Shown one piece after another: positions 19,688 through 49,365 of a DNA stretch of 64,000 nucleotides; the stretch's first letter is position 1, and every line of letters begins with the position of its first letter. The notes below the pieces were generated by a model, which saw only the letters and a program-made list of their open reading frames with translations, ran no database searches and was not told where the DNA came from. Origin of the DNA: Chthonomonadales bacterium (lineage in GTDB: Bacteria; Armatimonadota; Chthonomonadetes; Chthonomonadales; CAJBBX01); the NCBI GenBank assembly GCA_037443035.1, contig JBBIPC010000002.1:128001-192000 (forward strand), given 5' to 3'. The position numbers were made by a program, and so were the translations under genes.

Positions 19688-20971
19688 GTGCTGGTGATAC
19701 AGGACGTTGACGAGACATTGAAGCGGTTGCTTGCGACGGAGCTTGCCAAGCTGCCCGATACGCTTGTCTCGGACCCGCAACAGATCACCTTCGACTCACC
19801 GGCCACAGCCGAGGCGTCACAGCCAGATAAGTGCCGCCTGAACCTCTACTTGCACGACGTTCGCGAGAACCTCCAGTTGCGCGACCAATCGTGGGCGTTG
19901 GTGCGCAAGACGAACGAGGGCATAGCCGGTCGCAAGCGCCCACCCGTTCGTCTCGATCTGTCGTATCTTCTCACCGCCCACATGCCGCAGGACCCAGCAG
20001 CGGAGCACCGGGTCTTGGCGGACGCGCTGGGCATCCTCCTGCGGTTCCCTTACGCTCCTGAGAACTGCCTCGCAGGCTCCCTCGAAGGAAAGGGTCCCGA
20101 GGCAGTACTCATCAACGTGGTACAGCCTGATGATGTAGCGCACGGCGACGCTCACAACCTCTGGCGTGTGCTCGGAGGAAGCTTGCGACCGTCCGTGAGC
20201 ATCGTCGTCACAACCGAGTTCGATCCCTTCGAGACACGCTGGACGCGCGTGGTTCGCGAGGCAGTACTCGGGCTGGGCCAGGGGGTTCCGCCCCATGGAC
20301 CACGCCGACCTTTGGAGATGGGCGGTGTCAGGGTCAGCGCGGCCGGCGTCGTCACCACCGCCGACGGACAGAAGCCCGTGCCGGGCGCCACCGTCTCCGT
20401 AGAAGGACGTGACGAGCGTGCCACTTCGGACAGCCGAGGGTTCTGGTTCATCCTGGACCTGCCACCGGGCCCGAGGGTGCTTCGCGTCAAGAAGCGTGGC
20501 TATCATGAACAAGAGGTTCAGACGGTCTGTCCTCCCCCCGGTCGGCCGGACCAACTGGAACCCATTGTCGTGCGCCTCGAAGAGATGAGCGACGGTCAGC
20601 GCTCCGTGGAGGAACGCGTCTTGACCGAAGCCGCCCTGAACGCGCCGGATCTGGTCGAACTCGATAGGGTCTATACAGTGTCGCTCTCTGGTAGGCTCCG
20701 CTACCCGGACGGGCGACCTGCAGCGTACATCCCTCTCCGCATCGGTCGTCACCATACGACTAGCGATTCCGAGGGTGTCTACACGTTCCACGACCTCCCA
20801 CCTGGTGACCACATCCTTATCGCAGACGTGCCAGGGCGTGGGGAGATCACCGTCAAGACCGAAAACGGCGCTGGCATGCTTCAGCTCGCAGAGGCGGGCG
20901 AGACGAACAGCGCCACCCGAGACGCAAAGCCTGCTAGACGCACTAGGAAGGAGGTCGAGCCACCAGACTGA
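19688..20971 (+). CDS. Pvc16/Afp16-like (DUF4255) CIS cap protein fused to two carboxypeptidase-regulatory-like domains
   Basis: IQDVDETLKRLL, ITFDSP, LNLYLHDVREN, LDLSYLLTA, EHRVL, LRPSVSIVVT; C-terminal GVV...PVPGATV...TSDSRGF..LDLPPG repeated twice. Confidence 0.85.
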   Translation: MLVIQDVDETLKRLLATELAKLPDTLVSDPQQITFDSPATAEASQPDKCRLNLYLHDVRENLQLRDQSWALVRKTNEGIAGRKRPPVRLDLSYLLTAHMPQDPAAEHRVLADALGILLRFPYAPENCLAGSLEGKGPEAVLINVVQPDDVAHGDAHNLWRVLGGSLRPSVSIVVTTEFDPFETRWTRVVREAVLGLGQGVPPHGPRRPLEMGGVRVSAAGVVTTADGQKPVPGATVSVEGRDERATSDSRGFWFILDLPPGPRVLRVKKRGYHEQEVQTVCPPPGRPDQLEPIVVRLEEMSDGQRSVEERVLTEAALNAPDLVELDRVYTVSLSGRLRYPDGRPAAYIPLRIGRHHTTSDSEGVYTFHDLPPGDHILIADVPGRGEITVKTENGAGMLQLAEAGETNSATRDAKPARRTRKEVEPPD

Positions 20972-21065
20972 GATGTCCCGCAAGAGTGAAAGTCGCTGCA
21001 AGTAAGATCCGGGATGTGACCCGGCAACCGACCATGCAAATGAGACGAAGACCAAGGAGGTCGAA

Positions 21066-22931
21066 ATGCCTGAATACCTAGCACCAGGTGTGTTCGTAGA
21101 AGAGATCGAGAGCGGCTCCAAGCCCATCGAAGGCGTCGGCACCAACACGGCGGCCTTCATCGGCTACGCGAAGAGCGGCGAGTTCAACAAGCCCACGTTC
21201 ATCTCCAACTGGACCCAGTTCTGCCAGATCTTCGGCGAAGAAGAGAACATCATCGTGAAGGCCCTCTGCGACGAGCTGGGCATGCCTGCGGCAGAGCTTG
21301 TGGCGGCCAAGCGTGCGTCCCGGAAGAGCTGGATGGACTTCGCGATGGCGACCATCACAGCGGCCATTCGCGAGCGTCAGGCCTCAGGGAAGGCCGATCC
21401 ATCCAAGTGCAAGACATGGCCTGAGTTCGTCAAGAAGTATCAGATCCCCCAGGGCAGCCTGCCATACCTGGAGGGAAGCTACCTGGCCCATGCTGTGCGC
21501 GGCTACTATGACAACGGTGGCGGACGTGCTTATATCGTGCGTGTCGCCAGGCCGGATGACATCGCTGCGCTGACCTATGTGCCGGCGGGCGCTGGCGCCC
21601 AGGCTCAGCCGTCGGTGGCACAGGTGGCCGTCGGCGGAATCACGTTCAAGGCACTGAAACCCGGTCCCGAGGGCAACGATATCAAGGTCGAGGTCGAGGC
21701 AGCCGAGGGTGATGAGTTCCGGATCAAGATCACCCATGGCAGCGACACGGAGCAGTTCGGCTATGGTAAGGACAAGCCGCTCACCGTGCAGACGCTGGCC
21801 GATGCGCTGAAACGCTCCAAGCTAGTTCAGGCCGAAGTCACCGCGACTGCCACCAAGCCTGAGGCGAAGGTCTACACGCTGACCGGAGGCGCCGCGTTGG
21901 CCACCACTGGTCCGGGTACAGCGCTAACACCTGCCGGCTCGGCCGTATCCACCAGCCTTGCGAAGGTCTCGCCCAACGATTTTGTCGGTGACGAGGCACA
22001 GCGCACAGGCTTCAACGGTCTCGCAGTGGTGGAAGACATCAACTTCGTGGCGGTTCCCGACTTGATGGCGGGGGTCTTCACCAAGGTCGAGACCCCTGGC
22101 GGCGCCGTCGAGGAGGTGCTGACCATCACCGACCAGCGCAAGCAGGCCATTCTCGATGCTCAGTGCGCCTTGGTTGCCTACTGCGAACGCATGGGCGACC
22201 GGATGGCCATCCTCGATCCCCTTCCGGGCCTCACGCCGCAGGAGATGCGGGATACGACCAACAACACCGCGTATAACTGCGACCACGGCCAGGCAGCTAT
22301 CTACTACCCGTGGATCAAGATCGCCGATCCTACGCGGAAGGGAGCGCAGATGTTCTGTCCTCCTTCGGGACACGTCGCCGGTGTCTGGGCTCGCGTGGGT
22401 GTCGAGCGTGGCGTCCACAAGGCTCCTGCGAACGAGGCGCTGCTGGGCGCGGTGGATCTCGAGGTCAAGGTAACCAAGGGCGAGCAGGAGATCCTCAACC
22501 CCGACGGCATCAACGCCATCCGTGCGTTCCCCGGCACTGGTATCCGAATCTGGGGTGCCCGGACTCTCGCCACAGTTGGCAATCCGTCGTGGAAATACAT
22601 CAACGTCCGGCGTCTGTTCAACTACCTGGAGAAGTCCATGGAGCGCGGGCTGCAGTGGGTCGTCTTCGAACCCAACGACGAGGACCTCTGGGGCCGCGTG
22701 CGGCGCAATCTGTCGGCCTTCCTGTGGACCGAATGGAAAGAGGGCAAGCTGTTCGGATCCGTCCCAGAGGAGGCCTTCTACGTCAAGTGCGACGCTGAGA
22801 CCAACCCGCAGGAGATGATCGACCTGGGCAGGCTGTATGTGGAGATCGGCGTGAACCCGGTCAAGCCCGCCGAGTTCGTCATCATCCGCATCGGCCAGTG
22901 GTCCGGCGGCGGTTCTATCTCCGAGACGTAA
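21066..22931 (+). CDS. Contractile tail sheath protein (CIS)
   Basis: AAGGAGG RBS; MPEYLAPGVFVEE, PPSGHVAGVWAR, GVHKAPANE, IWGARTL, YINVRRLF, WVVFEPND, KPAEFVIIR. Confidence 0.97.
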   Translation: MPEYLAPGVFVEEIESGSKPIEGVGTNTAAFIGYAKSGEFNKPTFISNWTQFCQIFGEEENIIVKALCDELGMPAAELVAAKRASRKSWMDFAMATITAAIRERQASGKADPSKCKTWPEFVKKYQIPQGSLPYLEGSYLAHAVRGYYDNGGGRAYIVRVARPDDIAALTYVPAGAGAQAQPSVAQVAVGGITFKALKPGPEGNDIKVEVEAAEGDEFRIKITHGSDTEQFGYGKDKPLTVQTLADALKRSKLVQAEVTATATKPEAKVYTLTGGAALATTGPGTALTPAGSAVSTSLAKVSPNDFVGDEAQRTGFNGLAVVEDINFVAVPDLMAGVFTKVETPGGAVEEVLTITDQRKQAILDAQCALVAYCERMGDRMAILDPLPGLTPQEMRDTTNNTAYNCDHGQAAIYYPWIKIADPTRKGAQMFCPPSGHVAGVWARVGVERGVHKAPANEALLGAVDLEVKVTKGEQEILNPDGINAIRAFPGTGIRIWGARTLATVGNPSWKYINVRRLFNYLEKSMERGLQWVVFEPNDEDLWGRVRRNLSAFLWTEWKEGKLFGSVPEEAFYVKCDAETNPQEMIDLGRLYVEIGVNPVKPAEFVIIRIGQWSGGGSISET

Positions 22932-22945
22932 GCAACCACACCTGA

Positions 22946-22980: not shown

Positions 22981-23008
22981 CACTATCAAGAGGAAGGGAG
23001 ACAACACT

Positions 23009-23443
23009 ATGGCTGAAGTAGTCGGCGCCCTGCGATGGTACCTGGAGATTGACGGCATCACCGAGGGCATCTTCCGAGAGGTCACTGGCCTCGATTCGGA
23101 AACGGAGGTTATCGAGCATCGCGTCACTGGCAAGGGCGGAAACCTCGTCGTCCACAAGGTACCTGGCGCGCTCAAGTGGCCCAACATCGTGCTCCGTCGC
23201 GGCATTACCGATGACAAGCGGCTCCACGACTGGCGCAAACAGATCGAGAACGGCGGCATCGAAGCCAACCGCAAGAACGGCTCTGTGACGCTCTATGCTC
23301 CCGACGGCAAGGTCGTCTGCAAGTACACCTTCAAGAAGGCCTGGCCCTGCAAGTTCAAGGGACCAGCCCTAGATTCGACCAAGAACGAGATCGCCATCGA
23401 GGAGCTAGAGCTGGCACACGAAGGTCTCGAGCGACAGCAGTAA
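23009..23443 (+). CDS. Tail tube protein (T4 gp19-like, Afp1/5 family)
   Basis: FREVTGLDSETEVIEHR, PGALKWPNIVLRRG, RKNGSV, AWPCKFKGP, IAIEELELAHEG. Confidence 0.95.
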   Translation: MAEVVGALRWYLEIDGITEGIFREVTGLDSETEVIEHRVTGKGGNLVVHKVPGALKWPNIVLRRGITDDKRLHDWRKQIENGGIEANRKNGSVTLYAPDGKVVCKYTFKKAWPCKFKGPALDSTKNEIAIEELELAHEGLERQQ

Positions 23444-23461: not shown

Positions 23462-23815
23462 ATGAACAAGCCTACCAAGAGCGGTCTTCAGACGGAGTTC
23501 GACTTCGTCCTGCCACGCGGATACATTGACCAGAACGGCACTCTGCACCGCGAGGGACGTATGCGCCTAGCGACAGCCATGGACGAGATCGCTCCGCTGA
23601 GAGACCCTCGCGTCAGAGCCAATCAGGCCTACCTGGTTATCATCCTCCTGGCCAGGGTGATCACGAAACTCGGCACTGTCGAGGTCATAGACACGGGTGT
23701 CATCGAGAACCTCTTCTCGGCAGACCTTGCTTACCTGCAGGACTTCTACCGGAAGATCAATGACTTGACGCCCGAGGAGACCGCGGAAGAGGAGGCTGAA
23801 CCGGCGGGGGAATAG
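23462..23815 (+). CDS. CIS tail-assembly chaperone
   Basis: LQTEFDFVLPRGYID..G.LHREGRMRLATAMDEI.PLRDPRV..N.AYL, LFSADLAYLQDFY; lies right after the tube gene; ends GGG GAA TAG. Confidence 0.85.
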   Translation: MNKPTKSGLQTEFDFVLPRGYIDQNGTLHREGRMRLATAMDEIAPLRDPRVRANQAYLVIILLARVITKLGTVEVIDTGVIENLFSADLAYLQDFYRKINDLTPEETAEEEAEPAGE

Positions 23816-23973
23816 CCCGCTACCCCTCGAGCGCGCTCTACGAGGAGGTAGCCTACATCGCCTATCACTTCCACTGGTCGTTGGAGGAGATCCTGAGCCT
23901 GGAACACCGAGAACGGCACAGGTGGGTGGAAGAGATAAGCAAGATCAACCAGCGACTGACCGGGGGCGACTGA
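23806..23973 (+). CDS. DUF6760-like small CIS ORF with no start codon (probable -1 frameshift extension of the chaperone)
   Basis: Not in the ORF track. The -1 frame reads GGIARYPSSALYEEVAYIAYHFHWSLEEILSLEHRERHRWVEEISKINQRLTGGD*. An in-frame stop lies at 23797-23799 and there is no ATG/GTG/TTG before the conserved block. Confidence 0.85.
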   Translation, partial: GGIARYPSSALYEEVAYIAYHFHWSLEEILSLEHRERHRWVEEISKINQRLTGGD

Positions 23974-24048
23974 CAGCGCAAGACATCATAGCGCCTAGGC
24001 GCCCCCGCGACCTTGTACGACCGTAGACTGCGACAAGCAACTTCCGAG

Positions 24049-27000
24049 ATGGCCAGCATCGCTGAGCACACAAAGATTGGCAGCGCCGGTATTGCCGCGG
24101 CGGAGTTCGCGCGTCAGCGGCTTGCTGGTCGCACGGCCATGGGATTCCTCACGTCAGTGGGCACGGATGTTGCCAAGATCGGAGAGAGGTCGAGCACTTG
24201 GCTGGCAAGCGTCGCCAACGCTTATTATCAGTGGCAGCAAGACAAGGCCCGCGATGGAGCGGTGACCGAACCTGCTTATCCCGACAGCTACAGGGGGCCG
24301 AAGTACTCCACGTGGGAGGAAGCGCTTCAGCACGACACGCGCACCATCCTGTTCGTCAACGGCATGAACACAACGTTCGCCGACCACGAACGGCACAAGA
24401 GGCTGCTTGCTCAGCGCACCGGTCGGCCCGTGGTGGGCGTCTACAACTGGCCCGGTACTCCCACCGCCTACTCTCGGCATGATATCGTTCAGTACATCGG
24501 CTCCCTGCTCGATGTGAAGCAACCCCTTCTGGATGCTGCAGGTAGGTCAAGCAGCAATGCCGCCACCCAGACCCTCGAGCGCCTTCTGAAGCTCTATGCG
24601 ACGACACGCACGCCAAGCGCACCGCTGCGCGTGATCGGTCACTCGCAGGGATCGCTTATCGCTGCGACTGCACTCCGAGACGTCCCTGCAGCTCGCTCGC
24701 ACGTGGATTTCGAAGCACGCGGTACCATGCTCGGCTCGGTGCCGCGCGGTCTTCACGGTTTCCATGCACATGTGCATGAGGACGACTTGGTGGCGCGGCT
24801 GAGTCGACCGTTCGTGAGCACGATCCAAAGCCCATACGTCTGGCTTGGAACGGATGAAAAGACGCTTCCGCGAACAGAGGTCGGCGGAACCGGCGGGCAC
24901 GCGCTCGAGGGGTATCCGCTGGGTCCTGAGTTCATCCCAATGGACCGTGCCACCGATGCCGGCACTCTCGAGCGTTACCTCGTGCTTGTGGGCATCCCTC
25001 GCCAGCGCGCCGTCATCATCGCTCAGCGTGTCATCCACATGCGGGAGATCATCCGTCGGTGCCGAGCTGCAGCCGGTAGCATCGTGCGTTTCGTCGCCGC
25101 CCGTGTAGTCGAGCGGTGGCTGGCAGCTCGAACACGGTCGCTCCGCGTATGGCTCTCGGTCCGGTCGCGTGTTCGTACGCTTCTCGAGGATACCCGCCGC
25201 CGTGCACAGCAGGGCTTAGCCCATGCCCTGGAATCTGGCCGGCGCCTTCTGGCGCGCGCCCGACAGATGGTCCGGAGGCTCCAACAATGGGCCCGCGAGC
25301 GGATCCGCCAAGCCGTCGCCAGAGCAGAAGCTTCTATCCGACGCGCATGGGATTGGGCTCGGAACGCCGCAAGCAACGTGTGGGCGTGGGTTCGATCGAA
25401 GACCCGGTTCCTGCCATGGGATTGGGCAGGAGAGAAGGTTCGCGGCATATGGAACGCAGCCAAGTCCGTCGCTGAGCGCGAACGCACCTTCGTGAGGAGT
25501 CTTCGTCGGGCGACGTTGGACTTTCTCCGCGAACGAACCCAGGCACTCTGGGAGTGGGCTACGACCGCGGCCGCGGATCTCTGGCACCGAGCCGTCGAGG
25601 CGGCGGGTCGGGCCTGGGACTTTGCACGAAGCCTGGCGACACGACTGTGGCACACGGCAGAAGCCATCTCCCGCCGATTGACAGAAGGCGCCCGATCATA
25701 CGCTGAACGGCTGCGTCAAGAGGCACTCGACAAGATCAACGCTTGCTGGAAGTCGCTTCCGCCTGGAGTTCGCAACTTGGTTCTCCCTGGCGTCTCCATG
25801 GTCCGACGGCTATTAGGAGCAGGCCGAGAAGGTGCGAGAACCTACCGAAGATGGATACGCAGCGCGCTCGGCCGCTTATGGTCCTTCGCTAAGGGTCCAG
25901 TCGGCAGGGCGGCCAAGTGGCTGCGGAGCGCTGCCGGAAAAGCATGGGATTTCGCGCGGAGCCTTCTCGCCCGAGGCCACGATGTTGCGCGCGGTGTTCG
26001 TACAATCGCCGGCCGCGCGTGGGATTGGGGTAGAAAGCGCCTCGGGCCCCTATGGAACATCGCCCGCTCCTCCGTACGACGGCTGTTGCAGCGCGGTCTG
26101 ACGGGCGCCCGACGACTGGCCGAGTTCGGCAGGACTGTAGCGCGAGGCATCCTGGGGCGGCTCGGCCCGGGCGCCGCTCACTTGGCACGTCAGTTGGTGA
26201 GAGTGCTCGGTCCAGTGGTCGGCGGCCCAGCGTGGGTGGCTCGACAACTGGGACGCTGGGCAGGCGAGAGGTTCGGACGGCTTCTGAGAGGGGATCCACG
26301 GGCTCGCAGTGTCGTCCGCGGCATCCGGGTGGTCTCCCAACGGTTAGCACGCTTGGCTCGCGAAGGCCCCGGCGGCATGGCGGTGCGTCTCGGACGGTTC
26401 GTAGGCCGTACGTTCGGAGAGATGCTAAGGAGCGTGACATCGGGGCACGGAACGCGAAGCTCCCGGGCCGGACGCATTATCGGTAGGCTTCTCCGCGTGG
26501 TCAGCGGCGGCTTCCTGCCGGAGGCTGCTCGGTGGGCTGGTACTCTCCTTGGTCGGCTCGTACGGCGCGCCATGGAGCGGCCAGGCATTCTGGGTCAGTG
26601 GGCTGGTCGTGTGGTGGGGCGGCTCCTCGTAACGGCTCGAAGCGCCGCACACGGTCTCGATCGGGCGACGGGCGGCATGCTTGGCCGATTGGTGAGCCGA
26701 CTCGCCCACGGCGCTGGGACTGCTGGGCAGTTCATCGGCAACCTCTTGGGGCGCGCGGCCGAAGCCGTCGCGGAAGGCCGAGACCGCCTGGGTCAATTTG
26801 TCGGCGGCCTGGTGGGCAGACTGCTCGGCACTGCATCGCGGACCGCAGACCGCGCCAGGGAGACCACGGGTCGGATGCTCGGTCGCCTCTTGGGAGCCGG
26901 CCTGCAGGCTCTCCGGCGTGCGGATTCGCTATCCGGTGGGCTCTTAGGCCGAGCTCTTGGAGCAGGGGCAAGAGGGGCGAGGATCGTGGGCAGGCTCGTA

Positions 27001-31654: not shown

Positions 31655-31984
31655 ATGGCGATTCGCATCAAGCGGCTCCACTGCCGCGTAATGGTGAAAA
31701 CCGGTGGCAAGAGCCGTCCCATCCTCGCCAAGGATGAGAAGCGGCCCACGCCGTCGCTCGCTTTCGCGATGCCGTCAGCCCGGCCACGAACCGAGGGCGC
31801 TGGACAGGAGCCGGCCGTGAGCGCCATCGAGGAAAAGGGTGCCGCAGCCGGCCGGAAGCCGCGAATCGACCCGCGGCGGGTGGATCCCAAGCTCGTCGCC
31901 GACAGGGTCTACGATCTGATGATGAAAGAACTCCACCTTGCTCGCGAGCGAGGCGAGGTGAAGTACGGAGGGATGCGACCATGA
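31655..31984 (+). CDS. Small CIS-associated hypothetical protein
   Basis: Sits between the giant gene and tube 2 and overlaps the next start; C-terminal VADRVYDLMMKELHLARERG. Confidence 0.75.
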   Translation: MAIRIKRLHCRVMVKTGGKSRPILAKDEKRPTPSLAFAMPSARPRTEGAGQEPAVSAIEEKGAAAGRKPRIDPRRVDPKLVADRVYDLMMKELHLARERGEVKYGGMRP

Positions 31985-39231: not shown

Positions 39232-39528
39232 ATGCCACCTGCAGCACGCATGGGAGATCCAACTGCACACGGAGGGGTGATCACGATGGGCTGTCCCACT
39301 GTCCTCATCGGAGGTCAACCGGCGGCCCGTCTGGGCGACATGCACACGTGCCCCATGGTCACACCTGGTACACCGCCGGTCCCCCACGTGGGCGGGCCCA
39401 TCCTTCCGCCGTGCCAGCCTACCGTTCTAATCGGCGGCATGCCAGCCGCCAGGGTCGGTGACATGGCCACGTGTGTCGGTCCCCCCGACTCGATTGTGAT
39501 GGGTTGCGTGACCGTGATCATCGCCTGA
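39232..39528 (+). CDS. PAAR spike-tip protein
   Basis: PAARMGD, PAARLGD and PAARVGD with His/Cys ligands. Confidence 0.96.
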   Translation: MPPAARMGDPTAHGGVITMGCPTVLIGGQPAARLGDMHTCPMVTPGTPPVPHVGGPILPPCQPTVLIGGMPAARVGDMATCVGPPDSIVMGCVTVIIA

Positions 39529-39551: not shown

Positions 39552-39959
39552 ATGCCCGACGCAACGAAGGATTTCCTGGGATCAGGTTGGAAGTTTCCGC
39601 CGGTCCTCGATAGCCGTGGCCGCATTGCCCTTGTGCACCAAGAGCAGGACGTCGAAGAAGCCATCCAGATGATCCTCCGAACACGCAAGGGAGAGCGACC
39701 CATGCGACCGCAGTTCGGATCGGACCTGCATCTGCTCGCCTTCATGCCCAACGACGCCAGCACGCAGGGCATGGCCTGCCGGTATGTCCGTGAAGCGCTG
39801 GCATGGTGGGAACCCCGCATCGAGGTGGTCGAAGTCAATGCTCGGGCCGACGAAGCGGATCCGGCACGCATGCTCATTGACATTCGTTACCGGCTCTTAG
39901 CCACGAACTCGGAACGGAATCTTGTGTTTCCGTTCTATGTGATCCCCGGAGAGGAGTAG
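39552..39959 (+). CDS. gp25/GPW-like baseplate wedge protein (Afp9-like)
   Basis: GAGGAGG RBS; FLGSGWKFP, ILRTRKGERPMRPQFGS, WEPRI, NLVFPFY. Confidence 0.95.
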   Translation: MPDATKDFLGSGWKFPPVLDSRGRIALVHQEQDVEEAIQMILRTRKGERPMRPQFGSDLHLLAFMPNDASTQGMACRYVREALAWWEPRIEVVEVNARADEADPARMLIDIRYRLLATNSERNLVFPFYVIPGEE

Positions 39960-39968
39960 CACGCCGCC

Positions 39969-42101
39969 ATGTCCCTCCCAAGCCCCAACCTGGACGACCG
40001 AAGCTTCCAGAGCATCGTAGATGACGTCAAGCGTCAGATCGGTCTGCGATGCCCCGAGTGGACCGACCACAACGTCTCGGATCCCGGCGTCACGCTCATC
40101 GAGCTGTTCGCCTGGATGATGGAGATGACGCTGTACCGCCTCAATCAGGTTCCGGAGAAGAACTACCTGAAGTTCCTGGAGATGCTCGGCGTCTCGCTGG
40201 AGCCGCCGCAGCCGGCGCGCACTGACCTGCGATTCCGGCTTTCACGTCCCATCGAGGACACTGACGGAGAGGAGGCGTACGAAGTCACCCTCAAGCCCCG
40301 CTCCACTATCGCGGGCACCGTTCGAACAGAGACCGAGGAGTCCATCGAGTTCGCGACTGACAGTGAACTGAAGATGGTTCGGCCCCGTATGCGCTACGTC
40401 ATCATGGCACCGAAGCGCGACCTGGCTGAAGGTGAGGACGAGCTGACGCGCGACATCCAGGAGTTTCAGCCCGGCCACGGGGCGTTCCAGATTTTCAGTC
40501 CCGTACCGCGGACAGGTGACGCTCTCTACATCGGCTTCGAGAACGACGTCTCGGGGAACCTCATACAGCTAGACGTGGAATGCGTAACCGCCGCGGCTAC
40601 TGGTCTGAACGAAGACTACCCGGCTCAGGTATGGGAGTGGTGGAACGGAACAACGAACAGATGGGAGCGCCTGGAGACGCCCTTCGACGACACCTTTGGC
40701 TGGAACCGGCCTGGTTACATCGAGCTGGACATGCCGCAGAATCTGGTGCCCAGGGTCCTGGGAGGCCGGCGTGCCTACTGGGTGCGTTGCCGATATACGA
40801 TCGATCCGGAAGACGTTCCACCGAAGGGTCCACAGAACCGCGGTCCAGATGAGTACCAGAAGCCGCCTGAGATCACTTCGCTGTTCGCACGCACGGTGGG
40901 CGGCACAGCCCCCGCGAGTCAGTGCACGACGGTATTCGAAGAAGTGCTTGGTCAGAGCGATGGCACTCCCGGCCAGGTTTTCCGCCTCAAGAACGCTCCG
41001 ATCATGCCACGTCGTCCTGGAGAGACGGTTCTCGTCGGCCGCGAGGGTGCGCCGCCCGAGGAAATGCAGAAGTGGACGGAGGTCGTGGACTTCTCCGAAT
41101 CCGGACCGGACGACCTTCACTTCACTTGCGACTCCCTGACCGGGGAGGTAGCCTTCGGACCAGCGATTCCACAACCCGATGGTTCCGCTCGTCGCTATGG
41201 CGCGATACCCGAGAAGGGCATGACGATCGTGTTTTCGGCGTACCGCTTTGGAGGTGGCACACAGGGCAACGTTCGAGAGAACCAGGTCCGCGTCCTCAAG
41301 TCCTCCATACCTTATATCGCGGAGGTGACCAACCCACGCAAGGCCCATGGAGGACAGGACCTGGAGGATATCGAGAGGGCCAAGATGCGGGGCCGCGCTG
41401 TGCTCAAGATGCGCGACCGAGCCGTAACGGCCGAGGATTTCGAGTTTCTTGCCAAACGAGCATCGTCCGGCGTCGGTCGGGCGCGATGCATTCAGCCCGC
41501 CCCTCGGCATCTGTGGACCGATGAAAGCGATGTACCGCCCGGAGTCGTCAAGGTGCTCATCGTTCCGGCGCTGTCCGAGGCCGTCACCGTCCCACGTCCC
41601 GCCGATCTCCGTGTGCCAGAACGCACAAGACGCGATGTCGAGCGCTATCTGGACGAGCGACGGCTTCTCACGACGGTACTCGAAGTCGGCGAGCCGGAGT
41701 ACCTATATGTCTCGACAGACATCGTTCTGGTGGCCGACCCTCATGCCGACGCAGAGGAAGTAGTCCGTCGCGTACGGGAGAAGCTGACGGCGTACCTCCA
41801 TCCGCTCACCGGCGGACCAACGGGCGATGGATGGCCCTTCCGCCGAAGCTTCACCATCTCCGATCTCTATGCACAAGTGGGAGCAGTGGACGGCGTAGCG
41901 TTCCTTCTTGACGCCAAGATATATGTCTCGCAGGTTGCGAACCAGGAAGAGGGCATCCTCGGTCCAGAGCAGCTCGTGCCCAATACGGAAGGCGTACGAG
42001 TGGCAGGTCACCAACTGCTCACCACACGAGAGCACAGGGTACGAGCCCGATCTATCTACCAGGTGGGCGCCGAGGACAGCCCCCTACTCGATGAAGCATA
42101 G
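39969..42101 (+). CDS. Baseplate J-like assembly protein (Afp11-like)
   Basis: LPSPNLDDRSFQ, PEWTDHNVSDPGVTLIELFAW, RAVTAEDFE, LHPLTGGP.G.GWPF. Confidence 0.95.
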   Translation: MSLPSPNLDDRSFQSIVDDVKRQIGLRCPEWTDHNVSDPGVTLIELFAWMMEMTLYRLNQVPEKNYLKFLEMLGVSLEPPQPARTDLRFRLSRPIEDTDGEEAYEVTLKPRSTIAGTVRTETEESIEFATDSELKMVRPRMRYVIMAPKRDLAEGEDELTRDIQEFQPGHGAFQIFSPVPRTGDALYIGFENDVSGNLIQLDVECVTAAATGLNEDYPAQVWEWWNGTTNRWERLETPFDDTFGWNRPGYIELDMPQNLVPRVLGGRRAYWVRCRYTIDPEDVPPKGPQNRGPDEYQKPPEITSLFARTVGGTAPASQCTTVFEEVLGQSDGTPGQVFRLKNAPIMPRRPGETVLVGREGAPPEEMQKWTEVVDFSESGPDDLHFTCDSLTGEVAFGPAIPQPDGSARRYGAIPEKGMTIVFSAYRFGGGTQGNVRENQVRVLKSSIPYIAEVTNPRKAHGGQDLEDIERAKMRGRAVLKMRDRAVTAEDFEFLAKRASSGVGRARCIQPAPRHLWTDESDVPPGVVKVLIVPALSEAVTVPRPADLRVPERTRRDVERYLDERRLLTTVLEVGEPEYLYVSTDIVLVADPHADAEEVVRRVREKLTAYLHPLTGGPTGDGWPFRRSFTISDLYAQVGAVDGVAFLLDAKIYVSQVANQEEGILGPEQLVPNTEGVRVAGHQLLTTREHRVRARSIYQVGAEDSPLLDEA

Positions 42102-42113: not shown

Positions 42114-43265
42114 ATGACAACCACACTGGACGGACGAAGGACGCCGCCGGGCAGCCAGGAAGACATCGGCCAGCCCATACAGAACATCGAGGTATCGGTT
42201 ACACCGGACGCCGTTCGGGTCGAACTCCTCCCCAGGCACGCCGGTTCACCACTGGAACGCCTGCGACCACTGTGGCATGAAGTGGTGAGGCTACCGCGCA
42301 TGGTGCTGAGCGTCACGTCTTCTGACGAACGCCCACGCCTCCTCAGGCTCTCGACCCGTTCGACGGATTCAGCCTGGCGATCATGGTGGACTCGCTGGAC
42401 GTTCGCAGTTCGGACGGTACCGGAGATCCATGGAGGCGACGCCGTCGCGGCTCAGGACATCACACTCGAGGACGATACGATCCTTCAGATACTCGTTCTT
42501 CCTGGAGAGACGCGGGAGGTCGCACTGGAATTCCGTCCTGTCCTGGACGGCACGACTCACCCCGGCGACTATGTCTTCGATATAGTCTACACGGACGTGA
42601 ACGACCGCTCCGAGGGGGCCGTCTCCGCCATGCTTGTGCTCCGGCATCCCGACAGCGTCCTCGAGCGACAGCTACCAGCCATCTACGCCGAGGAGATGGA
42701 CAGACTTCAGGAGGCATCAGGAGAACCCTACGAACCACCGTTCTTCCGGCGGTACCTCCGTGGGTTCGATGATGCGCTGGAGCCCATGAAGGAGACGCTG
42801 GACAACCTGCATCGGTTTTTCGGTGCCTACGAGACGCCGCCGGACTTCCTCCCCTGGCTGGCAACGTGGGTGGACCTCGTTCTGGATCAGAACTGGCCGG
42901 AGATGAAGCGCCGTCGCCTCATACGCGAGGCGGTCGAGCTCTATCGCTGGCGCGGTACCCGGCGTGGGCTCATGCGCTATCTCGAGATCTATGCCGGCGT
43001 GAAACCGGAGATCAACGACCGTCCCTTCCGGGGCATGCGCCTCGGCCCAGACACGGTGCTAGGCACAGGTCTCGAGGATCCAGAAAAGGCCCACCAGAAC
43101 ACCGTGCTTGGTGATGTTCCCGACCATACGTTCGTCGTGACTATCGCAGTACCGGACCCTTCGGCCATTAGTGAGCAAACGGTTCGGGACATCATTGACG
43201 CTCAGAAACCTGCCCACACCGCCTATGTCGTGCGGATTGTACGACGTACATCATCGGAGGAATAG
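42114..43265 (+). CDS. Phage tail protein I-like baseplate subunit with N-terminal extension
   Basis: LPAIY, FLPWLATWV, RRLIREAVELYRWRGTRRG, IIDAQKPAHTAY. Confidence 0.9.
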   Translation: MTTTLDGRRTPPGSQEDIGQPIQNIEVSVTPDAVRVELLPRHAGSPLERLRPLWHEVVRLPRMVLSVTSSDERPRLLRLSTRSTDSAWRSWWTRWTFAVRTVPEIHGGDAVAAQDITLEDDTILQILVLPGETREVALEFRPVLDGTTHPGDYVFDIVYTDVNDRSEGAVSAMLVLRHPDSVLERQLPAIYAEEMDRLQEASGEPYEPPFFRRYLRGFDDALEPMKETLDNLHRFFGAYETPPDFLPWLATWVDLVLDQNWPEMKRRRLIREAVELYRWRGTRRGLMRYLEIYAGVKPEINDRPFRGMRLGPDTVLGTGLEDPEKAHQNTVLGDVPDHTFVVTIAVPDPSAISEQTVRDIIDAQKPAHTAYVVRIVRRTSSEE

Positions 43266-43274: not shown

Positions 43275-44444
43275 ATGCCACTCGAGGACATGATAGCCCA
43301 CCCCATTACCGGCATCCGCCCCTTCAACGAACTCCGTATAGATGCCGAGATCTGGCGCGAAGCCCACGAGCAGCACACGCTCCATCGTCGCCTTCACAAC
43401 GTGTCGGCTCACCGGCCCGGCATCGTCTATGGATTGGAGGTCGTGGTCTCCCAGACGAAGGAGCGGACAATCGTGGTGGCGCCCGGAGTCGCCATAGACG
43501 ATGATGGCAATGTCGTCGTCCTTGGTGAGCCACCAGTGGCGTTCACGCTCGAGGAGAAAGGGCAGACCTATATCACCCTATCGTTCCTCCGCGCTACGGA
43601 CCGGCGATCGGCAGTGACAGTCGGATCCGGTCAGCAGCATTATCGCATCGTCGAAGGTCGCGACGTGCGGGCCACCAAGGAACTCCCGACAGGCCCGTAC
43701 ATCGAACTGGCGCGGATCTGGCGTACTGGCGCTGACAAGCCCGTCAAGGAGGCGGCGAACCCATTCGATCCTGGCAACGACGAGCTCAACCTCCTGAACC
43801 GGCCTATCGCCTTCCCTCATTGTTATGCTGAAGGAGCCGTGGGCGAGCTTTCGTATGTGCCGGTTTCCAATCCCGCCGCATGGAAGCCAAATAGATCCGG
43901 ACTGTGGCATCTGGTCCGGGAAGGCAACGGTCGGGGGTTTCATCTGTCGTTCACCGGTCCCATGAATCTGCGCCAGCCATCCGGGCGCGATCCCATCCTG
44001 CTCTATGTCGCAGGTTCCGAAGCTTTTCAGCCGCTCGCCGATGCCGAAGTCCAAGGCCTTCGCGAATACCTGGGTCGCGGTGGAATGCTGTTTGCCGAGG
44101 CCAGTGGCGGCTCCGAGGCGTTCGCTAAGAGCTTCGAGGAATTGGCGGGCAAGTTGGGCGCGAAGTTGGCGAAGGTCTCGAAGGGGCACCCCTTGCTGAC
44201 CGCTCATCACGTTTTCTCTGGACCACCTCCTGGCGCACAAGAGAAGGGCGTACTTACCGCGGACGTAGAAGCAGGCGTCATCTTGAGCACGTACGATTAT
44301 GGTGGTGCGTGGCAGGGCGATCTCGCCAAGCCCGATGCGGCAGATGCTCGCGACCGAATCCGCCAGGCTCAGGAGTTCGGCCTGAACGTCATCGCCTTCG
44401 CTGCACACCGACTCAGAACACGCGAACTGCGCAAGCTCGGTTAG
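43275..44444 (+). CDS. CIS baseplate/fibre-attachment-like N-terminal domain fused to a DUF4159-like domain
   Basis: N-terminus RLHN...PGIVYGLEV...VAPGVAIDDDG; C-terminus LREYLGRGGMLFAEASGG...HPLL...DYGGAW. Confidence 0.7.
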   Translation: MPLEDMIAHPITGIRPFNELRIDAEIWREAHEQHTLHRRLHNVSAHRPGIVYGLEVVVSQTKERTIVVAPGVAIDDDGNVVVLGEPPVAFTLEEKGQTYITLSFLRATDRRSAVTVGSGQQHYRIVEGRDVRATKELPTGPYIELARIWRTGADKPVKEAANPFDPGNDELNLLNRPIAFPHCYAEGAVGELSYVPVSNPAAWKPNRSGLWHLVREGNGRGFHLSFTGPMNLRQPSGRDPILLYVAGSEAFQPLADAEVQGLREYLGRGGMLFAEASGGSEAFAKSFEELAGKLGAKLAKVSKGHPLLTAHHVFSGPPPGAQEKGVLTADVEAGVILSTYDYGGAWQGDLAKPDAADARDRIRQAQEFGLNVIAFAAHRLRTRELRKLG

Positions 44445-44565: not shown

Positions 44566-44594
44566 TTGCCGCTGGAGAGTGCGTCTGCTATAAT
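44566..44594 (+). promoter_or_regulatory. Sigma70-type promoter for the last two genes of the cluster
   Basis: TTGCCG (44566-44571), 17-nt spacer, TATAAT (44589-44594), with an extended-10 TG at 44586-44587. Confidence 0.75.
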
Positions 44595-44667: not shown

Positions 44668-47091
44668 GTGGCAGCATCCGAGCAAACGAGGCAGTACCTG
44701 AACCCTCCTCCCCGCAGCGTGCTAGAGGTCGAGGCTGGTTCGGCAGTAGCACTCGCACTCGACTTCAGCAACGAGGCTCCCAACCCGCAGGGTTTCTACC
44801 TCGAAATAGACGGCCTCCCGGCTGCCGACTGGTCTACCGGTGTCGGTCCAACCAGCATGGTAGTAACGGCAGCGTTGGGAGCGGGTACGCTCAAGGCAAC
44901 GTTGCAGCCACCCGTTCGCGCTGCTGCGGCTGAGTATGCTCTGACAGTGAGGATCATCGCCGACGGCTCGGTGCTCGATCCGCCAGGAGACATAGCTCTG
45001 ACCCTCCGTGTGCTACCCGGGCCGGAACCGCCTGAGGAGGAGGTGTCTCCGGAGGCTGCCAGGATCCTGGAGGAAGTAGCCGCTGAGGAGGCGGCCACCC
45101 AAGCCACGTTAGAGACCGCCTTCGAGACATCATCCAGCGCGCCCGCTGTGGAAGTTCCCGCAGTCGAGCCGGCGGTATCCACTCCGGTTCCACCTCCTGC
45201 GCCGGAGCCTGCTCGGCCCACGGAACCGGTCGAGACGCCAACCGTCGCTGAGCCGCCGGCCGTGTCTCCACAGCCAGACATTGGGCCGCAGGTACAGCCA
45301 GCACCGCAGACTCCGGCGGCTACTTCGCCGGCCCCTGAGACACCTGCAAGTCCGCCACGGCCGACACAGCGCTCAGCCTCCGCGGCGCAGCCCCGACCGG
45401 CCGCACCACCCCGCCCTGCCAAGCCACCGGCTGCACCCAAGCCGACAGCTCCGTCGCCTCCTCCGCGGAAGCCCGACGAAGACATGCCCGTCATTGACCT
45501 CGGGGCCACGAGGCCGCACGTCGAAGAAGAGGAGGAAGAGGAACCGGCAATTGCAGAGAGGAGCGTGGTCGATCCCAAGGAGGGTACGGTCATCTCTCTG
45601 AAACCCGGTGAGACCACGCTGGTGCGCTTCAGTTTTCGCAACGAGCAGCGATCGACGCGGACATATGTCATAGACGAGGATCGGTCGCTGGAGCCAGGAT
45701 GGCTCGTTCTCGTGCAAGACCAAGTCAACATCAACGCCAACGGCACGGGTGAAGTCAGTGTGCGCCTCGCCCCACCCATCACAGCGCAGCCCGGGAGCTA
45801 TCCTTTCGTGGTGCGCGTCGGTCCGCTCGGCGCAACGCTGACACCGTGCAGCCTCGTGCTGGAAGTCCAGCCGACGCCTGCAGTGAAGTTGACAACCAAA
45901 CAAGATCTGGTGAAAGTCGGTCCCTTCGGACGGGCAGTGGACTTCGGCCTCATCGTCGAGAGCGCCGGCAACGCCGATACCTCCTTCCGGATCTCGGTGA
46001 AAGACCAGACTGTAGAGACCGATGAGCAGGGCCGCCCGAAGGGACCAGATGATCTGTACGAGACTCCTCTATGGCGGTACCTGTTCGACAAGGAGTTCGA
46101 AACACTCGAGTCCAAGGCCATAGGACGTCCGCCGAACCCCATACCTCTCCGCCTGCGAATGCTGCGCAAGGGCATCTGGTGGTTCGGTTTCAAGGAACAG
46201 CACCAGGCTCGTGTCAAGGCTGTGCCTGTTACCGACCCCACCAACGGAGGCAAGACAGAAAACTCGGTTCTACTGACGGCGATCCGCTGGCGCCTGTTGC
46301 CCATACCCGGCTTCCTGGCATGGCCACTCGCAATCGTCCTGTTCTTGCTCTTGGCTTCCGGCGCGAGCAACATGCGGGTGACCAATGCCTACAGTGTGGG
46401 CAGCTCCTATTATGTCCTGCAGATGCGAGACGATAACTGGACGGAGGGCAAGCCGCCCGTGAACATGACTGCCAAACTCCGGTGGAGCGCCCCGTGGTAC
46501 GCGCTGCTCAGGCTGAAGGCGTCAGAAGAAAACCGGACGGAGACTCACTACTTCGTACACGGGGGCTACGACGATACGATACAGGTCGAGGAATACGGCG
46601 ACAAGCGACGCCGCTCCTATGAAGTCGGTTCTCTGCTCCGTCCTGGCGGTGACCCGATACAGGTTCGGTTCGTCCCCCTGCGAACGGATATGAAATTGCT
46701 GCTCACGATCGGCCCTTCGGCAGCCCCCGTGGACGAATACGAGCGGGATGAATCCATCGGTGAGGACAAGACACCCCTCAAGACGCGAGAGGTCATCATT
46801 GACGTGCCCAGGGATGGCAGCACGCGTATCAACTTCAGCAACCTGACGGACCGAAATCGCGGTTTGAAGATACTGGTTCACCCCGTCACCGTACCCTCCC
46901 AGTTCAGAGTGGAGAACTTCACACTCAACGATTCGTCGCAGATCAACCCGGGAGAAACCCTCACGGCTAAGGTGACCTTTACGGGTACCGCGCCTCCAGA
47001 CGGCTCGAATGTGGAAGAGGATTGGCAGTTCGTCACGACAGACGCCACGCACCAGGTTCTCCATGTGCGCCTCCGGCTGAAGGTGGACTAG
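44668..47091 (+). CDS. Single-pass membrane protein: Ig-like (COG1470-type) domains, Pro-rich linker, TM helix, C-terminal beta-rich region
   Basis: LKPGETTLVRFSFRN...LAPPITAQPGSYPFVVRV; about 120-aa Pro-rich linker; TM PGFLAWPLAIVLFLLLASGA at about 46306-46368. Confidence 0.75.
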   Translation: MAASEQTRQYLNPPPRSVLEVEAGSAVALALDFSNEAPNPQGFYLEIDGLPAADWSTGVGPTSMVVTAALGAGTLKATLQPPVRAAAAEYALTVRIIADGSVLDPPGDIALTLRVLPGPEPPEEEVSPEAARILEEVAAEEAATQATLETAFETSSSAPAVEVPAVEPAVSTPVPPPAPEPARPTEPVETPTVAEPPAVSPQPDIGPQVQPAPQTPAATSPAPETPASPPRPTQRSASAAQPRPAAPPRPAKPPAAPKPTAPSPPPRKPDEDMPVIDLGATRPHVEEEEEEEPAIAERSVVDPKEGTVISLKPGETTLVRFSFRNEQRSTRTYVIDEDRSLEPGWLVLVQDQVNINANGTGEVSVRLAPPITAQPGSYPFVVRVGPLGATLTPCSLVLEVQPTPAVKLTTKQDLVKVGPFGRAVDFGLIVESAGNADTSFRISVKDQTVETDEQGRPKGPDDLYETPLWRYLFDKEFETLESKAIGRPPNPIPLRLRMLRKGIWWFGFKEQHQARVKAVPVTDPTNGGKTENSVLLTAIRWRLLPIPGFLAWPLAIVLFLLLASGASNMRVTNAYSVGSSYYVLQMRDDNWTEGKPPVNMTAKLRWSAPWYALLRLKASEENRTETHYFVHGGYDDTIQVEEYGDKRRRSYEVGSLLRPGGDPIQVRFVPLRTDMKLLLTIGPSAAPVDEYERDESIGEDKTPLKTREVIIDVPRDGSTRINFSNLTDRNRGLKILVHPVTVPSQFRVENFTLNDSSQINPGETLTAKVTFTGTAPPDGSNVEEDWQFVTTDATHQVLHVRLRLKVD

Positions 47092-47094
47092 ACC

Positions 47095-49365
47095 ATGAAG
47101 CTCTTGCAGACCGAGATCAACATCGTCCCAGGCGTAGCAGCCCAACGCCAACCGCTGCCGGAGGGCATGGTAGGACAGGGTGCCACCGTTGTCCGCCTCA
47201 CCAATAACACCAGCCAGGAAAACGCCTACACCATTCGCCTGGGCTGCGACAATCCTTACTGGCAAGAGTCTTGGTACACGCTCGTCCCGTTGCCACCGTC
47301 CGGAGCGCCGGAGAACGCACCTCCGGCAGGGAAGCCGGACCAGGTCTCCCATAACGGGCGCGTGGCTACGCTGTTCATCACGCGAGGCGGCGAGCGGGAT
47401 GTCATGGTCGTCTTCAAGGTGCCCAAGGAGTACGATGCCCGCGCAGGTCTCTACGATCTCACTATTCAGGTCGAGACTCGCGTCACGGGACAGTCCGCGG
47501 GTCTCCGGCGCAAGGACAGATTCACCGAGTTACATGCCACCGCCATCATTCGGCCGTTCGAGCCGTTCGATCAGTGGCGAATGGAGCTTCAGCCGGAGAC
47601 CCGCAAGGTGGGATTCTTCCGCCGTTCTACCGAGTTCGAAGCGGTTCTTACTAACGAATGCAATGACTGGCTATACTGCGAGCTACGCGCTCCGCGGCCC
47701 AAGGATGTCCTCATCGAGACTCCGTCGCAGTATATCGCAGTCCCGCCCCCGGAGCCTGGGCAGGAACGCACAGTGCGAACAGTGCCATTTCGTGCAGCAA
47801 GCCGGATCCGCCCGTTCCGCGGGGAACGCGTGCCATTGTCAATTCCCCTGACAGCGGTCCGCATCGCAGCGCCCACCGTAGCTCCGCTGCCCGAAGAAGC
47901 GCTCTATACCCCAGGCAGCGCGAACTGCCATGCTGCCGTCGTTGCCACCGAGACACAAGAAACACGTGTGCCGCCAGTGGAGCAGGCGCTGACGTACTGC
48001 CCACTCTTCCCTGCGACTCTCAGCGGATGTCTTGGTGCAATCGCCCAGAATGCCAAAGGGCTGATCATGACACTCATCGGCCTGATCGTGGCCGCGAACC
48101 TGGCTGTATTCATGTTCGAGCAGATGTTCCGCCACAACATTATCGCCGAACCCTATCGCACGCAGGTGGCACCTGGCGGGGTACTGACGATCGGCGGACG
48201 CTGGGTAAAGGGATCCCGCGTATACATCAATGACGAGACGCAACCCGCCGAGCAGGTTGAACCGCCCGAAGAGAAGGGTCTGCGGAACTTCTTCGCTAAC
48301 GCCCTCAAGGCCGTGCAGCCGTCCCAGTTGCAGCTGATTGCCATCAAGGTACCGGAGACGTACGACGGTAAGAAGATCCGCATTACGGTGCAGCGCGCCG
48401 GAGCGTTGCCGTTCCTCGGCCCTCTTCTACCGAAGTACAAGTGCGGCTCTATGGTGCAAGTCGGTAATCCGCCACGGCCTCCAGCGCCTGCCAAGAAGGC
48501 CTTCGCGTTTGTCGCGCCGACGGTGGCCCCTGGGCAGCAGTTCGCCATCTCCGGCAGCTCACTGGGTACTTCCGGGCAGGTCTTGATGGGATCGGAACCT
48601 GCACGCGTGGTGCGGTGGACACCAACTCGCATCGTGGCGTCACCGCCGGCCAACTTACCGGTCAATGATGCAATACCAGTGAATGTCATACCGAAGGATC
48701 ATGACCCGATCCCGGCCGGCACCATCAAGATCGTCCAGCCAGGTGCGAGCGCCGCCGAGACGCCCTCAGGCACCGCGACGCCACCGACACAAGGAGCTTC
48801 GGGCGCGACCACTCCAACGCTTCCGCCGGTGAATAGGCCCGGACCGGGTACCGTCAGGCCGCCGGTGCGGCCTCCCAGCGTCCCCAGAGGAACTGCAGCG
48901 GCAGCAGCAGCCTACACAGCCCTGCTTCGTGGCGACCCTGGCCAGACGTCGGCGAACGTCAACCGCGCACTCCAGACCAATCCTAACGATCCGCTGGCAC
49001 TCGCGGTAAAGGGCTATGCACTTCTTCGGGATGAGAAACCCGGCGACGCGGCCAGCTCCATCAGCCAGGCTCTGCGTTTGACTGCCGGACAATCCGGACG
49101 CGCGCGATCCGTGGCATTGACGGCATCGGCATGGCTCTCGGAGATGCGCGAAGACCCCACGTCGGCCGAGAGGCAATACAGGGAAGCCCTTAAGGCCGAC
49201 CGTACCTGCACTTTGGCTGCCTATAGCTACGCGTACTACCTCCTCGACAACAACCGACGAGCGGAGGCCATGGAAGTTGTGCGGACTGCGTTGCGCAACA
49301 ACGGTTCAGAGGCCCGGTCGTCCTCCCGTTTCATGGATCTGGCAGGCCAACTCGGCATCCACTAG
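47095..49365 (+). CDS. Single-pass membrane protein: Ig-like domains, TM helix, IPT/TIG-like domains, C-terminal TPRs
   Basis: VRLTNNTS...ARAGLYDLTIQV; TM LIMTLIGLIVAANLAVFMF at 48061-48117; PGQQFAISGSSLG...VRWTPTRI; TPR-like ALQTNPNDPLALAVKG. Confidence 0.75.
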   Translation: MKLLQTEINIVPGVAAQRQPLPEGMVGQGATVVRLTNNTSQENAYTIRLGCDNPYWQESWYTLVPLPPSGAPENAPPAGKPDQVSHNGRVATLFITRGGERDVMVVFKVPKEYDARAGLYDLTIQVETRVTGQSAGLRRKDRFTELHATAIIRPFEPFDQWRMELQPETRKVGFFRRSTEFEAVLTNECNDWLYCELRAPRPKDVLIETPSQYIAVPPPEPGQERTVRTVPFRAASRIRPFRGERVPLSIPLTAVRIAAPTVAPLPEEALYTPGSANCHAAVVATETQETRVPPVEQALTYCPLFPATLSGCLGAIAQNAKGLIMTLIGLIVAANLAVFMFEQMFRHNIIAEPYRTQVAPGGVLTIGGRWVKGSRVYINDETQPAEQVEPPEEKGLRNFFANALKAVQPSQLQLIAIKVPETYDGKKIRITVQRAGALPFLGPLLPKYKCGSMVQVGNPPRPPAPAKKAFAFVAPTVAPGQQFAISGSSLGTSGQVLMGSEPARVVRWTPTRIVASPPANLPVNDAIPVNVIPKDHDPIPAGTIKIVQPGASAAETPSGTATPPTQGASGATTPTLPPVNRPGPGTVRPPVRPPSVPRGTAAAAAAYTALLRGDPGQTSANVNRALQTNPNDPLALAVKGYALLRDEKPGDAASSISQALRLTAGQSGRARSVALTASAWLSEMREDPTSAERQYREALKADRTCTLAAYSYAYYLLDNNRRAEAMEVVRTALRNNGSEARSSSRFMDLAGQLGIH

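Follow-up and report, generated by a model that had tools for sequence, protein, structure and literature searches.

A lineage-IId contractile injection system in an Armatimonadota bacterium, with a conserved pair of membrane proteins as its possible inner-membrane dock

The contractile injection systems (CIS) of Streptomyces belong to subtype IId of the dbeCIS classification (PMC12237407), and the same source reports that firing in S. coelicolor requires CisA, which is bitopic and occupies the fibre position. CisA is lacking outside Actinomycetes. How lineage-IId CIS reach the membrane and fire is an open question, and the Sco4256-type proteins encoded beside them are read as cargo; a haloarchaeal CIS is anchored through its Cis12/Cis13 feet (PMC11566945). 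Here we describe a IId locus in a 64,000-nucleotide stretch of the Chthonomonadales (Armatimonadota) contig JBBIPC010000002.1, called the window below and numbered from its first letter. Positions 19688..49365 almost certainly encode an intact lineage-IId CIS, and our best reading of the gene content, at about even odds, is a cell-associated particle docked on the inner membrane by a pair of proteins with immunoglobulin-like (Ig) domains.

Seventeen co-oriented open reading frames (ORFs) fill this interval in exactly the order set out in the original prediction, and the proposed gene set is confirmed by ORF positions and by Pfam and NCBIfam (17/17 ORFs). The dbeCIS core subunits Afp1/5, 2/3/4, 7, 8, 9, 11 and 16 are all present by Pfam and NCBIfam, with VgrG_rel, TIGR02243, TIGR02242 and TIGR02241 matching above cut-off. 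Judged by its genes, the cluster is an Afp/PVC-related CIS, derived from a phage tail and without head genes, terminase and portal families serving as the head test. Its core structural genes are the following.

19688..20971, + strand: cap/terminator Afp16/Pvc16 with two C-terminal carboxypeptidase-regulatory-like domains (Pvc16_N 1e-29, CarboxypepD_reg 1e-20)
21066..22931, + strand: single sheath protein of lineage IId (Pfam 1e-21; best PDB match 8bky, Streptomyces, 3.6e-141; tree)
23009..23443, + strand: inner tube protein 1 (Phage_T4_gp19 2.8e-38; TIGR02241)
31981..32481, + strand: tube protein 2, an Afp5/Cis5-like initiator (gp19 1.8e-36; CIS5_fam 1.9e-31, below cut-off)
36551..37201, + strand: Afp7-like tube initiator with LysM (CIS_tube 8.6e-30, LysM)
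37270..39222, + strand: VgrG-like spike, fused gp27-gp5 (NF033848 1.2e-123; Phage_base_V/GPD)
39232..39528, + strand: PAAR tip (PF05488 5.9e-25)
39552..39959, + strand: gp25-like sheath initiator (PF04965 2.1e-26)
39969..42101, + strand: baseplate J (Cis11), single copy (TIGR02243 4.3e-124; PDB 9gtp 9.7e-128)

The true start of the gp25-like gene is probably the ATG at 39552, homologues aligning from residue 28 of a longer ORF. In two related genomes (G103, G169) separate gp27-like and gp5-like genes take the place of the fused VgrG. Each cluster protein is single-copy in a 3.76-Mb genome rated 100% complete, and the cluster is not an assembly artefact, since a contig from an independent run spans 21001-41000 at ~96% identity save for one diverged 175-base stretch. 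The genome encodes Omp85 and the host is therefore a diderm, in agreement with the proposal of a poorly studied diderm lineage. The closest named relatives of baseplate J are Chthonomonadales records, 84-86% identical. For the accessory proteins, most named homologues belong to Chthonomonadales, Fimbriimonadaceae, Capsulimonas and other Armatimonadota; one record carries the label Janthinobacterium.

Assignment to IId rests on structure matches, traits and trees. The closest solved sheath and baseplate J structures are those of the Streptomyces CIS (8bky, 9gtp), and the locus shows the subtype's single afp11, contiguous afp8, PAAR and lack of afp14; most IId loci also have no afp12/afp13 fibre, and here that position holds a shoulder-bearing stub without a fibre shaft. 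A quick tree built from 36 baseplate proteins puts the 14 Armatimonadota rows on a single branch (SH-aLRT 100, stem 0.81) among Actinomycetota, Chloroflexota and cyanobacterial loci. For the sheaths, a FastTree with 30 proteins gives the same grouping for 15 Armatimonadota rows, and two further Armatimonadota sheaths, from G017 and G031, belong to another CIS type; both trees comprise loci found with IId-like queries and include no named reference strains. The resemblance to Streptomyces, Chloroflexota and cyanobacterial loci that had been proposed from the single baseplate J and tail-I-like gene holds. Apart from one case in the sheath tree, sub-branches mostly track host families, and a genome of another genus also has both of the tested flanking genes; together these suggest long vertical inheritance with many losses. 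A congener, G016, has no CIS and lacks both tested flanking genes too, and its lack of a CIS is therefore uninformative on the insertion site. Other CIS types, with two baseplate genes and split VgrG, occur in Chthonomonadales (G017:C44, G031:C15, G008:C14, G043:C219), and G008 carries a second sheath locus.

The locus thus extends a known lineage to a phylum in which no such system seems to have been described. A full-text literature search of openly available papers, which did not extend to paywalled articles, supplements on bioRxiv or the dbeCIS/eCIStem databases online, returned none pairing "contractile injection" with "armatimonad" and none pairing "DUF4159" with "contractile". Among the rows listed in the genome table of Geller 2021, 17 Armatimonadetes are all scored as having no extracellular CIS (eCIS), and its supplement, as far as accessible, counts DUF4159 in 9 eCIS loci from 2 phyla. 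Armatimonadota names are absent from the text-readable supplements of PMC12210884 and PMC12923769. What is new is a phylum-level clade with a fixed combination of accessory parts, each of which has known relatives.

Four genes downstream of baseplate J carry the argument for docking.

42114..43265, + strand: wedge, Tail_P2_I/Cis12/TssG-like, with an added N-terminal Ig domain (Tail_P2_I 4.5e-14)
43275..44444, + strand: fibre-position protein with a TssK/receptor-binding-protein-like shoulder and a DUF4159 head, no shaft (DUF4159 4e-13)
44668..47091, + strand: membrane protein 1, 807 aa, one predicted transmembrane (TM) segment (543-561)
47095..49365, + strand: membrane protein 2, 756 aa, one hydrophobic segment (323-341; AlphaFold2 model, pLDDT 84.2)

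Membrane protein 1 reads as Ig, a variable Pro-rich tether of ~180 aa, Ig-Ig, TM and a C-terminal Ig-like region, for which the ESM Atlas gave Ig-like leads only, all sub-0.9. The model of membrane protein 2 shows Ig-Ig, a long single TM helix, two IPT/TIG-like domains, a linker and TPR; as a whole it returned only generic tandem-Ig matches with low TM-scores in Foldseek. Both are conserved like the structural genes, while the DUF4157 cargo described below is shuffled. Distinctive membrane partners had been predicted, and they are present, though not unique: their profiles match Ig-repeat proteins, the majority TM-bearing, next to 15 of 22 IId loci outside Armatimonadota (Actinomycetota 5/10, Chloroflexota 7/9, cyanobacteria 3/3, several loci stopping at contig ends), and uniqueness was rejected on this ground. 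Against a profile of the proteins in the Sco4256 position (5 actinobacterial and 1 from Chloroflexota) the two score 97.0% and 96.3%, controls staying below 1%; a direct search with the membrane protein 1 profile matched in 1 of 251 Actinomycetota genomes. The pair shows the Sco4256-family layout, two N-terminal PapD-like Ig domains, one TM and a variable C-terminus beside a IId CIS, and a layout of two Ig domains, TM and variable C-terminus is published for Sco4256 (PMC10020575 including Supplementary Data 5). As distant relatives of Sco4256-type proteins at other IId loci, the two are therefore divergent rather than unprecedented.

The same kind of Ig domain has been added to the wedge. In profile comparison the wedge Ig matches domain 1 of membrane protein 2 (hhalign 95.9%) and domains 1 and 2 of membrane protein 1 (84% and 79%), unrelated Ig controls scoring below 1%. 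Among Chloroflexota loci (L143-L149, L151) an FHA-like domain, by motif reading, replaces the wedge Ig in five, and the adjacent Ig-TM proteins of the same loci are long, and an FHA-like stretch occurs in at least one of them. If that motif reading is right, what is added to the wedge may reflect its partner in the membrane and point to phospho-regulated docking. The DUF4159 protein sits between wedge and membrane pair. Its AlphaFold2 model (pLDDT 80.6) has a GATase-like head, with Foldseek matches to 4i66 (8e-9) and TssK (about 4e-4) and structural Z-scores (VIA) of 21.7 for 4i66, 8.3-8.5 for phage fibre shoulders and 7.3-7.4 for TssK. TssK joins the T6SS (type VI secretion system) baseplate to the inner-membrane proteins TssL and TssM. 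The DUF4159 protein is 45-99% identical among the 120 homologues listed, and receptor-binding domains are usually far less conserved than its head. In fold and in position, downstream of Tail_P2_I, it would also be compatible with an eBAP3-type fibre, in a comparison that covers fold and gene order.

These genes travel together. A baseplate J orthologue (E<1e-200) occurs in 19 of 401 Armatimonadota genomes, setting aside 3 weaker matches (G060, G125, G288), and membrane protein 2 (E<1e-50) in the same 19, spread over 4 families, setting aside 21 weak matches (E above 1e-8) and G403, which has a broken piece resembling it and no baseplate match. The order baseplate J, wedge, DUF4159, membrane protein 1, membrane protein 2 is contiguous in 15 of the 19 carriers (G015 is not annotated there; G030, with many frameshifts, was used for gene order only), and the last three genes are visible at the edges of available sequence in G104 and G367. 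A separate family of 500-570-aa proteins with two Ig domains and a TM segment (P0128, P0129, P0137, P0139, P0142), with one member recorded under the name Chthonomonas, is probably the source of the weak membrane protein 2 matches in genomes without a CIS; similar weak matches include 380-570-aa two-Ig and TM proteins and FHA/kinase fusions.

Between tube and cargo lies a second conserved feature, a chaperone pair with a putative frameshift signal.

23462..23815, + strand: tail assembly chaperone, phage G-like (phrog_508 9e-8)
23806..23812, + strand: putative -1 slippery heptamer, GGGGGAA, immediately ahead of the chaperone stop (shared by 15/17 Armatimonadota loci)
23803..23973, + strand: DUF6760 frame, a GT-like extension in the -1 frame without a start codon (PF20546 3.1e-19)

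A chaperone with a slippery stop and a -1 extension is the G/GT pattern of phages, and the layout is complete here, with a gene in the tape-measure position following the -1 ORF. In 16 of 17 Armatimonadota loci DUF6760 occupies the -1 frame, and in 12 of those 16 it has no start codon; from this signature we infer -1 frameshifting at the chaperone stop. A conserved CGCTACCCC follows GGGGGAA and the stop (window 23806-23836, and related loci) and might base-pair with the G-run. In IId loci of Actinomycetota and Chloroflexota, too, a G-run precedes the chaperone stop and DUF6760 lies at -1, often with an overlapping GTG. For frameshifting of a CIS chaperone, the literature search returned only apparently unrelated papers. 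The length control of IId particles is unexplained, a recognised tape-measure gene being absent (PMC12237407), and the conserved chaperone signal could bear on it.

Three further genes encode the cargo and its possible partners.

24013..31641, + strand: 2542-aa polymorphic DUF4157 cargo (eCIS_core 9e-33; the start may be an ATG 12 codons later)
31655..31984, + strand: 109-aa protein ending in a conserved helix motif (in 4 related loci part of the DUF4157 cargo by fusion)
32573..36505, + strand: 1310-aa Pro/Ala-rich protein (C-terminal helix motif shared with the 109-aa protein)

The distinctive cargo of the original prediction is borne out in the giant protein, which begins with an alpha/beta hydrolase (GHSQG at 209), carries its DUF4157 core at 1369-1444 and has an Arg/Ala/Gly-rich middle with only weak matches to tape-measure PHROGs (E 4.5e-4 to 8e-3), a likeness equally weak for Tme and Sle1 (PMC11126660, PMC13277306). 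Its C-terminus has a nucleotidyltransferase-like SDID motif common to four other aligned loci, with a weak NTP_transf_2 match (E 0.019); the C-terminal region gave no usable ESM Atlas match, and no TM segment was detected in the protein. Relatives keep the DUF4157 region and swap N-terminal hydrolase or helical stretches and C-terminal domains, some of which we take, by their motifs, to be phospholipase-C-like or HNH-like. In G014 the giant gene looks split because of an assembly gap. The 109-aa protein is a probable cargo adaptor or tag, to judge from its motif and fusions; in G103 and G169 the small adaptor gene precedes the giant gene rather than following it. The 1310-aa protein has no family match in Pfam, NCBIfam or PHROG.

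The prediction of a near-complete system stands, with one component missing: the Afp15/Pvc15 ATPase was not found in this genome, where only generic AAA matches at 27-30% appeared. Afp15, an AAA+ ATPase, is one of eight eCIS core components (PMC6899500), and a Pvc15-type ATPase is required for loading of AlgoCIS (10.64898/2026.05.27.728243). Across the 19 carriers it lies at the locus in 6 and at a different CIS in 1, and the other 12, among them two closed genomes, yielded none; since members of the same clade have it, its absence here is a loss and not a sign of non-membership, and the clade displays natural, repeated loss of the loading ATPase. All nine loci with cargo above 2000 aa (9/9) lack it at the locus, and the complete loci that have it there (n=4) carry cargo below 1000 aa. 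In G007, G104, G128 and G234 a Pvc15-like ATPase follows a second short Pvc16-like ORF at variable position, like a detachable module.

Neighbouring features are listed next.

44566..44594, + strand: sigma-70-like promoter match TTGCCG-17-TATAAT with extended -10, upstream of membrane protein 1
49456..50337, - strand: convergent exported TPR protein, co-occurring with the CIS
50422..52038, - strand: LuxR-type regulator (GerE 2.4e-16), adjacent in some related loci only (G014, G008, G030)
52091..56497, - strand: exported caspase-like protein with His and Cys motifs present

The promoter match is weak because the scan gave 2 matches against 3.5 expected; a similar site precedes membrane protein 1 in 1 of 7 loci checked (G014), and promoter and terminator scans were at chance level. 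The exported TPR gene is found in 16 of 19 CIS carriers versus 2 of 39 non-carriers (weak matches), and caspase-domain genes lie beside at least 8 related loci. Among such caspase genes, some loci have a cell-wall hydrolase with LysM and NlpC/P60 (L081:13609-15672, L033:3846-5942; none in the window), which could open the wall for firing. A gene for a PorV/PorQ-like barrel and one for a large surface protein of Ig repeats (window 56584-62162, - strand) are kept beside the CIS in G014 and G008 only, and large ORFs at 2426-5590 and 9419-13912 (1054 and 1497 aa), with no or weak family matches, are unrelated to it.

From these parts we propose a working scheme. A phage-like chaperone pair produced by -1 frameshifting would assemble the tube around the long DUF4157 cargo, which may double as tape measure; with assembly built around such a cargo, no loading ATPase would be needed. 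The particle would form in the cytoplasm and then dock on the inner membrane, the DUF4159 stub, the wedge Ig or both meeting the N-terminal Ig domains of the pair, with membrane protein 1 as a long, flexible, CisA-like tether. A signal on the far side of the membrane, sensed through the IPT/TPR domains, the exported TPR protein or the caspase-like proteases, would trigger contraction and delivery of the hydrolase/nucleotidyltransferase-like cargo, into a neighbour as in a T6SS or within the producer as in Streptomyces. We regard as distinctly doubtful a bolder form of this scheme, a membrane-anchored T6SS-like subtype fitted to firing across a diderm envelope, with an independently recruited set of membrane-complex parts standing in for TssJLM (the DUF4159 protein as TssK-like connector, the two bitopic Ig proteins and the exported protein with TPRs) and a cargo built in by the frameshifted chaperone instead of an ATPase; if true, it would recast widespread Sco4256-type proteins as docking receptors and extend to uncharacterised cyanobacterial loci of the same gene order.

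The main rival, which we judge unlikely but a serious contender, is a free cytoplasmic, Streptomyces-like CIS in which the Ig pair is membrane-toxic cargo like Sco4256, fired with the DUF4157 giant in a stress-triggered killing of the producer. Homology to Sco4256-position profiles and the shared layout (PMC10020575), the effector data on Sco4256-58 (PMC10066040), a sheath nearest that of Streptomyces and the recurrent caspase-like neighbours all favour it; yet, where the DUF4157 cargo is shuffled, the pair stays invariant, one-to-one and conserved, its members are 756-807 aa with several folded domains in a clade where 12 of 19 genomes lack the loading ATPase, and it follows the fibre-position gene and shares its Ig type with the wedge. 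Several observations weigh against docking itself. The strongest is that Sco4256-4258, the nearest relatives of the pair to have been characterised, behave as effectors, being toxic in E. coli, and that their deletion leaves ~85% of tube lumens empty (PMC10066040). IId particles of Roseiflexus and Deinococcota are free in the cytoplasm (PMC12998442), and a TssK-like shoulder is a general trait of Tail_P2_I-type eCIS fibres (PMC12923769), for which reason we rejected the shoulder as a new observation; the modelled TssK Z-scores are middling in any case. The pair's kinship is drawn from profiles of Sco4256-position proteins, not from Sco4256 itself, its topology is predicted, with N-termini presumed cytoplasmic, and the Armatimonadota wedge Ig gave no match to the extension on the cyanobacterial wedge (0.4%). 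The pair is separated from the baseplate genes in G321, and because the carriers are kin and not independent, the co-occurrence counts speak to linkage rather than function and fit cargo as well as an anchor.

A released, extracellular CIS, with the DUF4159 stub as receptor-binding fibre and the membrane proteins serving export, immunity or sensing, strikes us as improbable. It would account for the eBAP/TssK-like shoulder in the fibre-position gene, the PAAR and the polymorphic, toxin-like cargo, but the DUF4159 head is conserved far beyond what is usual for a receptor-binding domain, no holin, lysin or spanin appeared in a Pfam scan of the 40 window ORFs, and those IId particles that have been characterised are cytoplasmic, contracting upon lysis (PMC12998442). 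The label "Afp/PVC-related eCIS" of the original prediction therefore keeps its kinship, while release of the particle is probably the wrong mode. Least credible of all is a prophage tail remnant or tailocin, which we rejected: the G/GT signature and the weak tape-measure matches are phage-like, but neither terminase (PF03237) nor portal (PF04860) was found in the genome, where positive controls matched and capsid families were not searched, and the eCIS markers Pvc16_N, CIS_tube and eCIS_core are present. The sheath groups with IId CIS, both flanks are common to the genome of another genus and the trees largely track host families.

Whichever role the pair has, the clade offers a fixed, comparable set in a diderm phylum: an Ig-fused wedge, a TssK-like stub and two bitopic Ig proteins. 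Homologues are annotated in Capsulimonas corticalis (CCAX7_63120, CCAX7_63140), a cultured species, and anchor versus cargo is therefore directly testable.

Compared with known systems, the locus is nearest to the Streptomyces CIS (CIS-Sc/SLP), sharing a single sheath, a single baseplate J with a small Tail_P2_I wedge, a fused VgrG, the chaperone with DUF6760, the Pvc16 cap and nearby Sco4256-type proteins with two Ig domains and a TM segment. It differs in its diderm host, the Ig-added wedge, the TssK-like DUF4159 stub between wedge and membrane proteins, the fixed pair of large bitopic proteins, the frequent loss of the ATPase and the giant DUF4157 cargo in the operon; membrane protein 1 is likened to CisA by description, not sequence. 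Cyanobacterial IId-type loci share the order baseplate J, N-terminally extended wedge, DUF4159 and Ig-repeat proteins (3/3 loci), but form a separate clade with different C-terminal regions, low identity and wedge extensions that cannot be aligned, and several of the Chloroflexota loci examined have the FHA-like domain (by motif reading) instead of Ig on the wedge. The cytoplasmic CIS of Roseiflexus and Deinococcota are also of subtype IId, with no close CisA homologue reported there (PMC12998442); their particles were seen unanchored, and Roseiflexus has the ATPase. Like Tme and Sle1/Sle2, the giant cargo is the largest ORF and lies upstream of the tube initiator and baseplate, with a DUF4157 core, a toxin-like variable C-terminus and weak tape-measure similarity (PMC11126660, PMC13277306); unlike them, it has no detected TM segment, starts with a hydrolase and ends in a nucleotidyltransferase-like domain where they have an endonuclease.

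The anchor candidate of the haloarchaeal T6SS-like CIS differs in having six TM helices. Classical T6SS i-iii was rejected, since the DotU/TssL family is absent from all five genomes tested (0/5, control matched; TssM and TssJ were not searched genome-wide), and T6SS i-iii lack the phage-type sheath, Pvc16 cap and baseplate J that are all present here (PMC6899500). Likeness to them lies in the TssG-like wedge, the TssK-like shoulder protein, the two inner-membrane proteins and the exported protein. The arrangement recalls the T6SS gene order tssK-tssL-tssM, and the system, though not a T6SS i-iii, may work like one.

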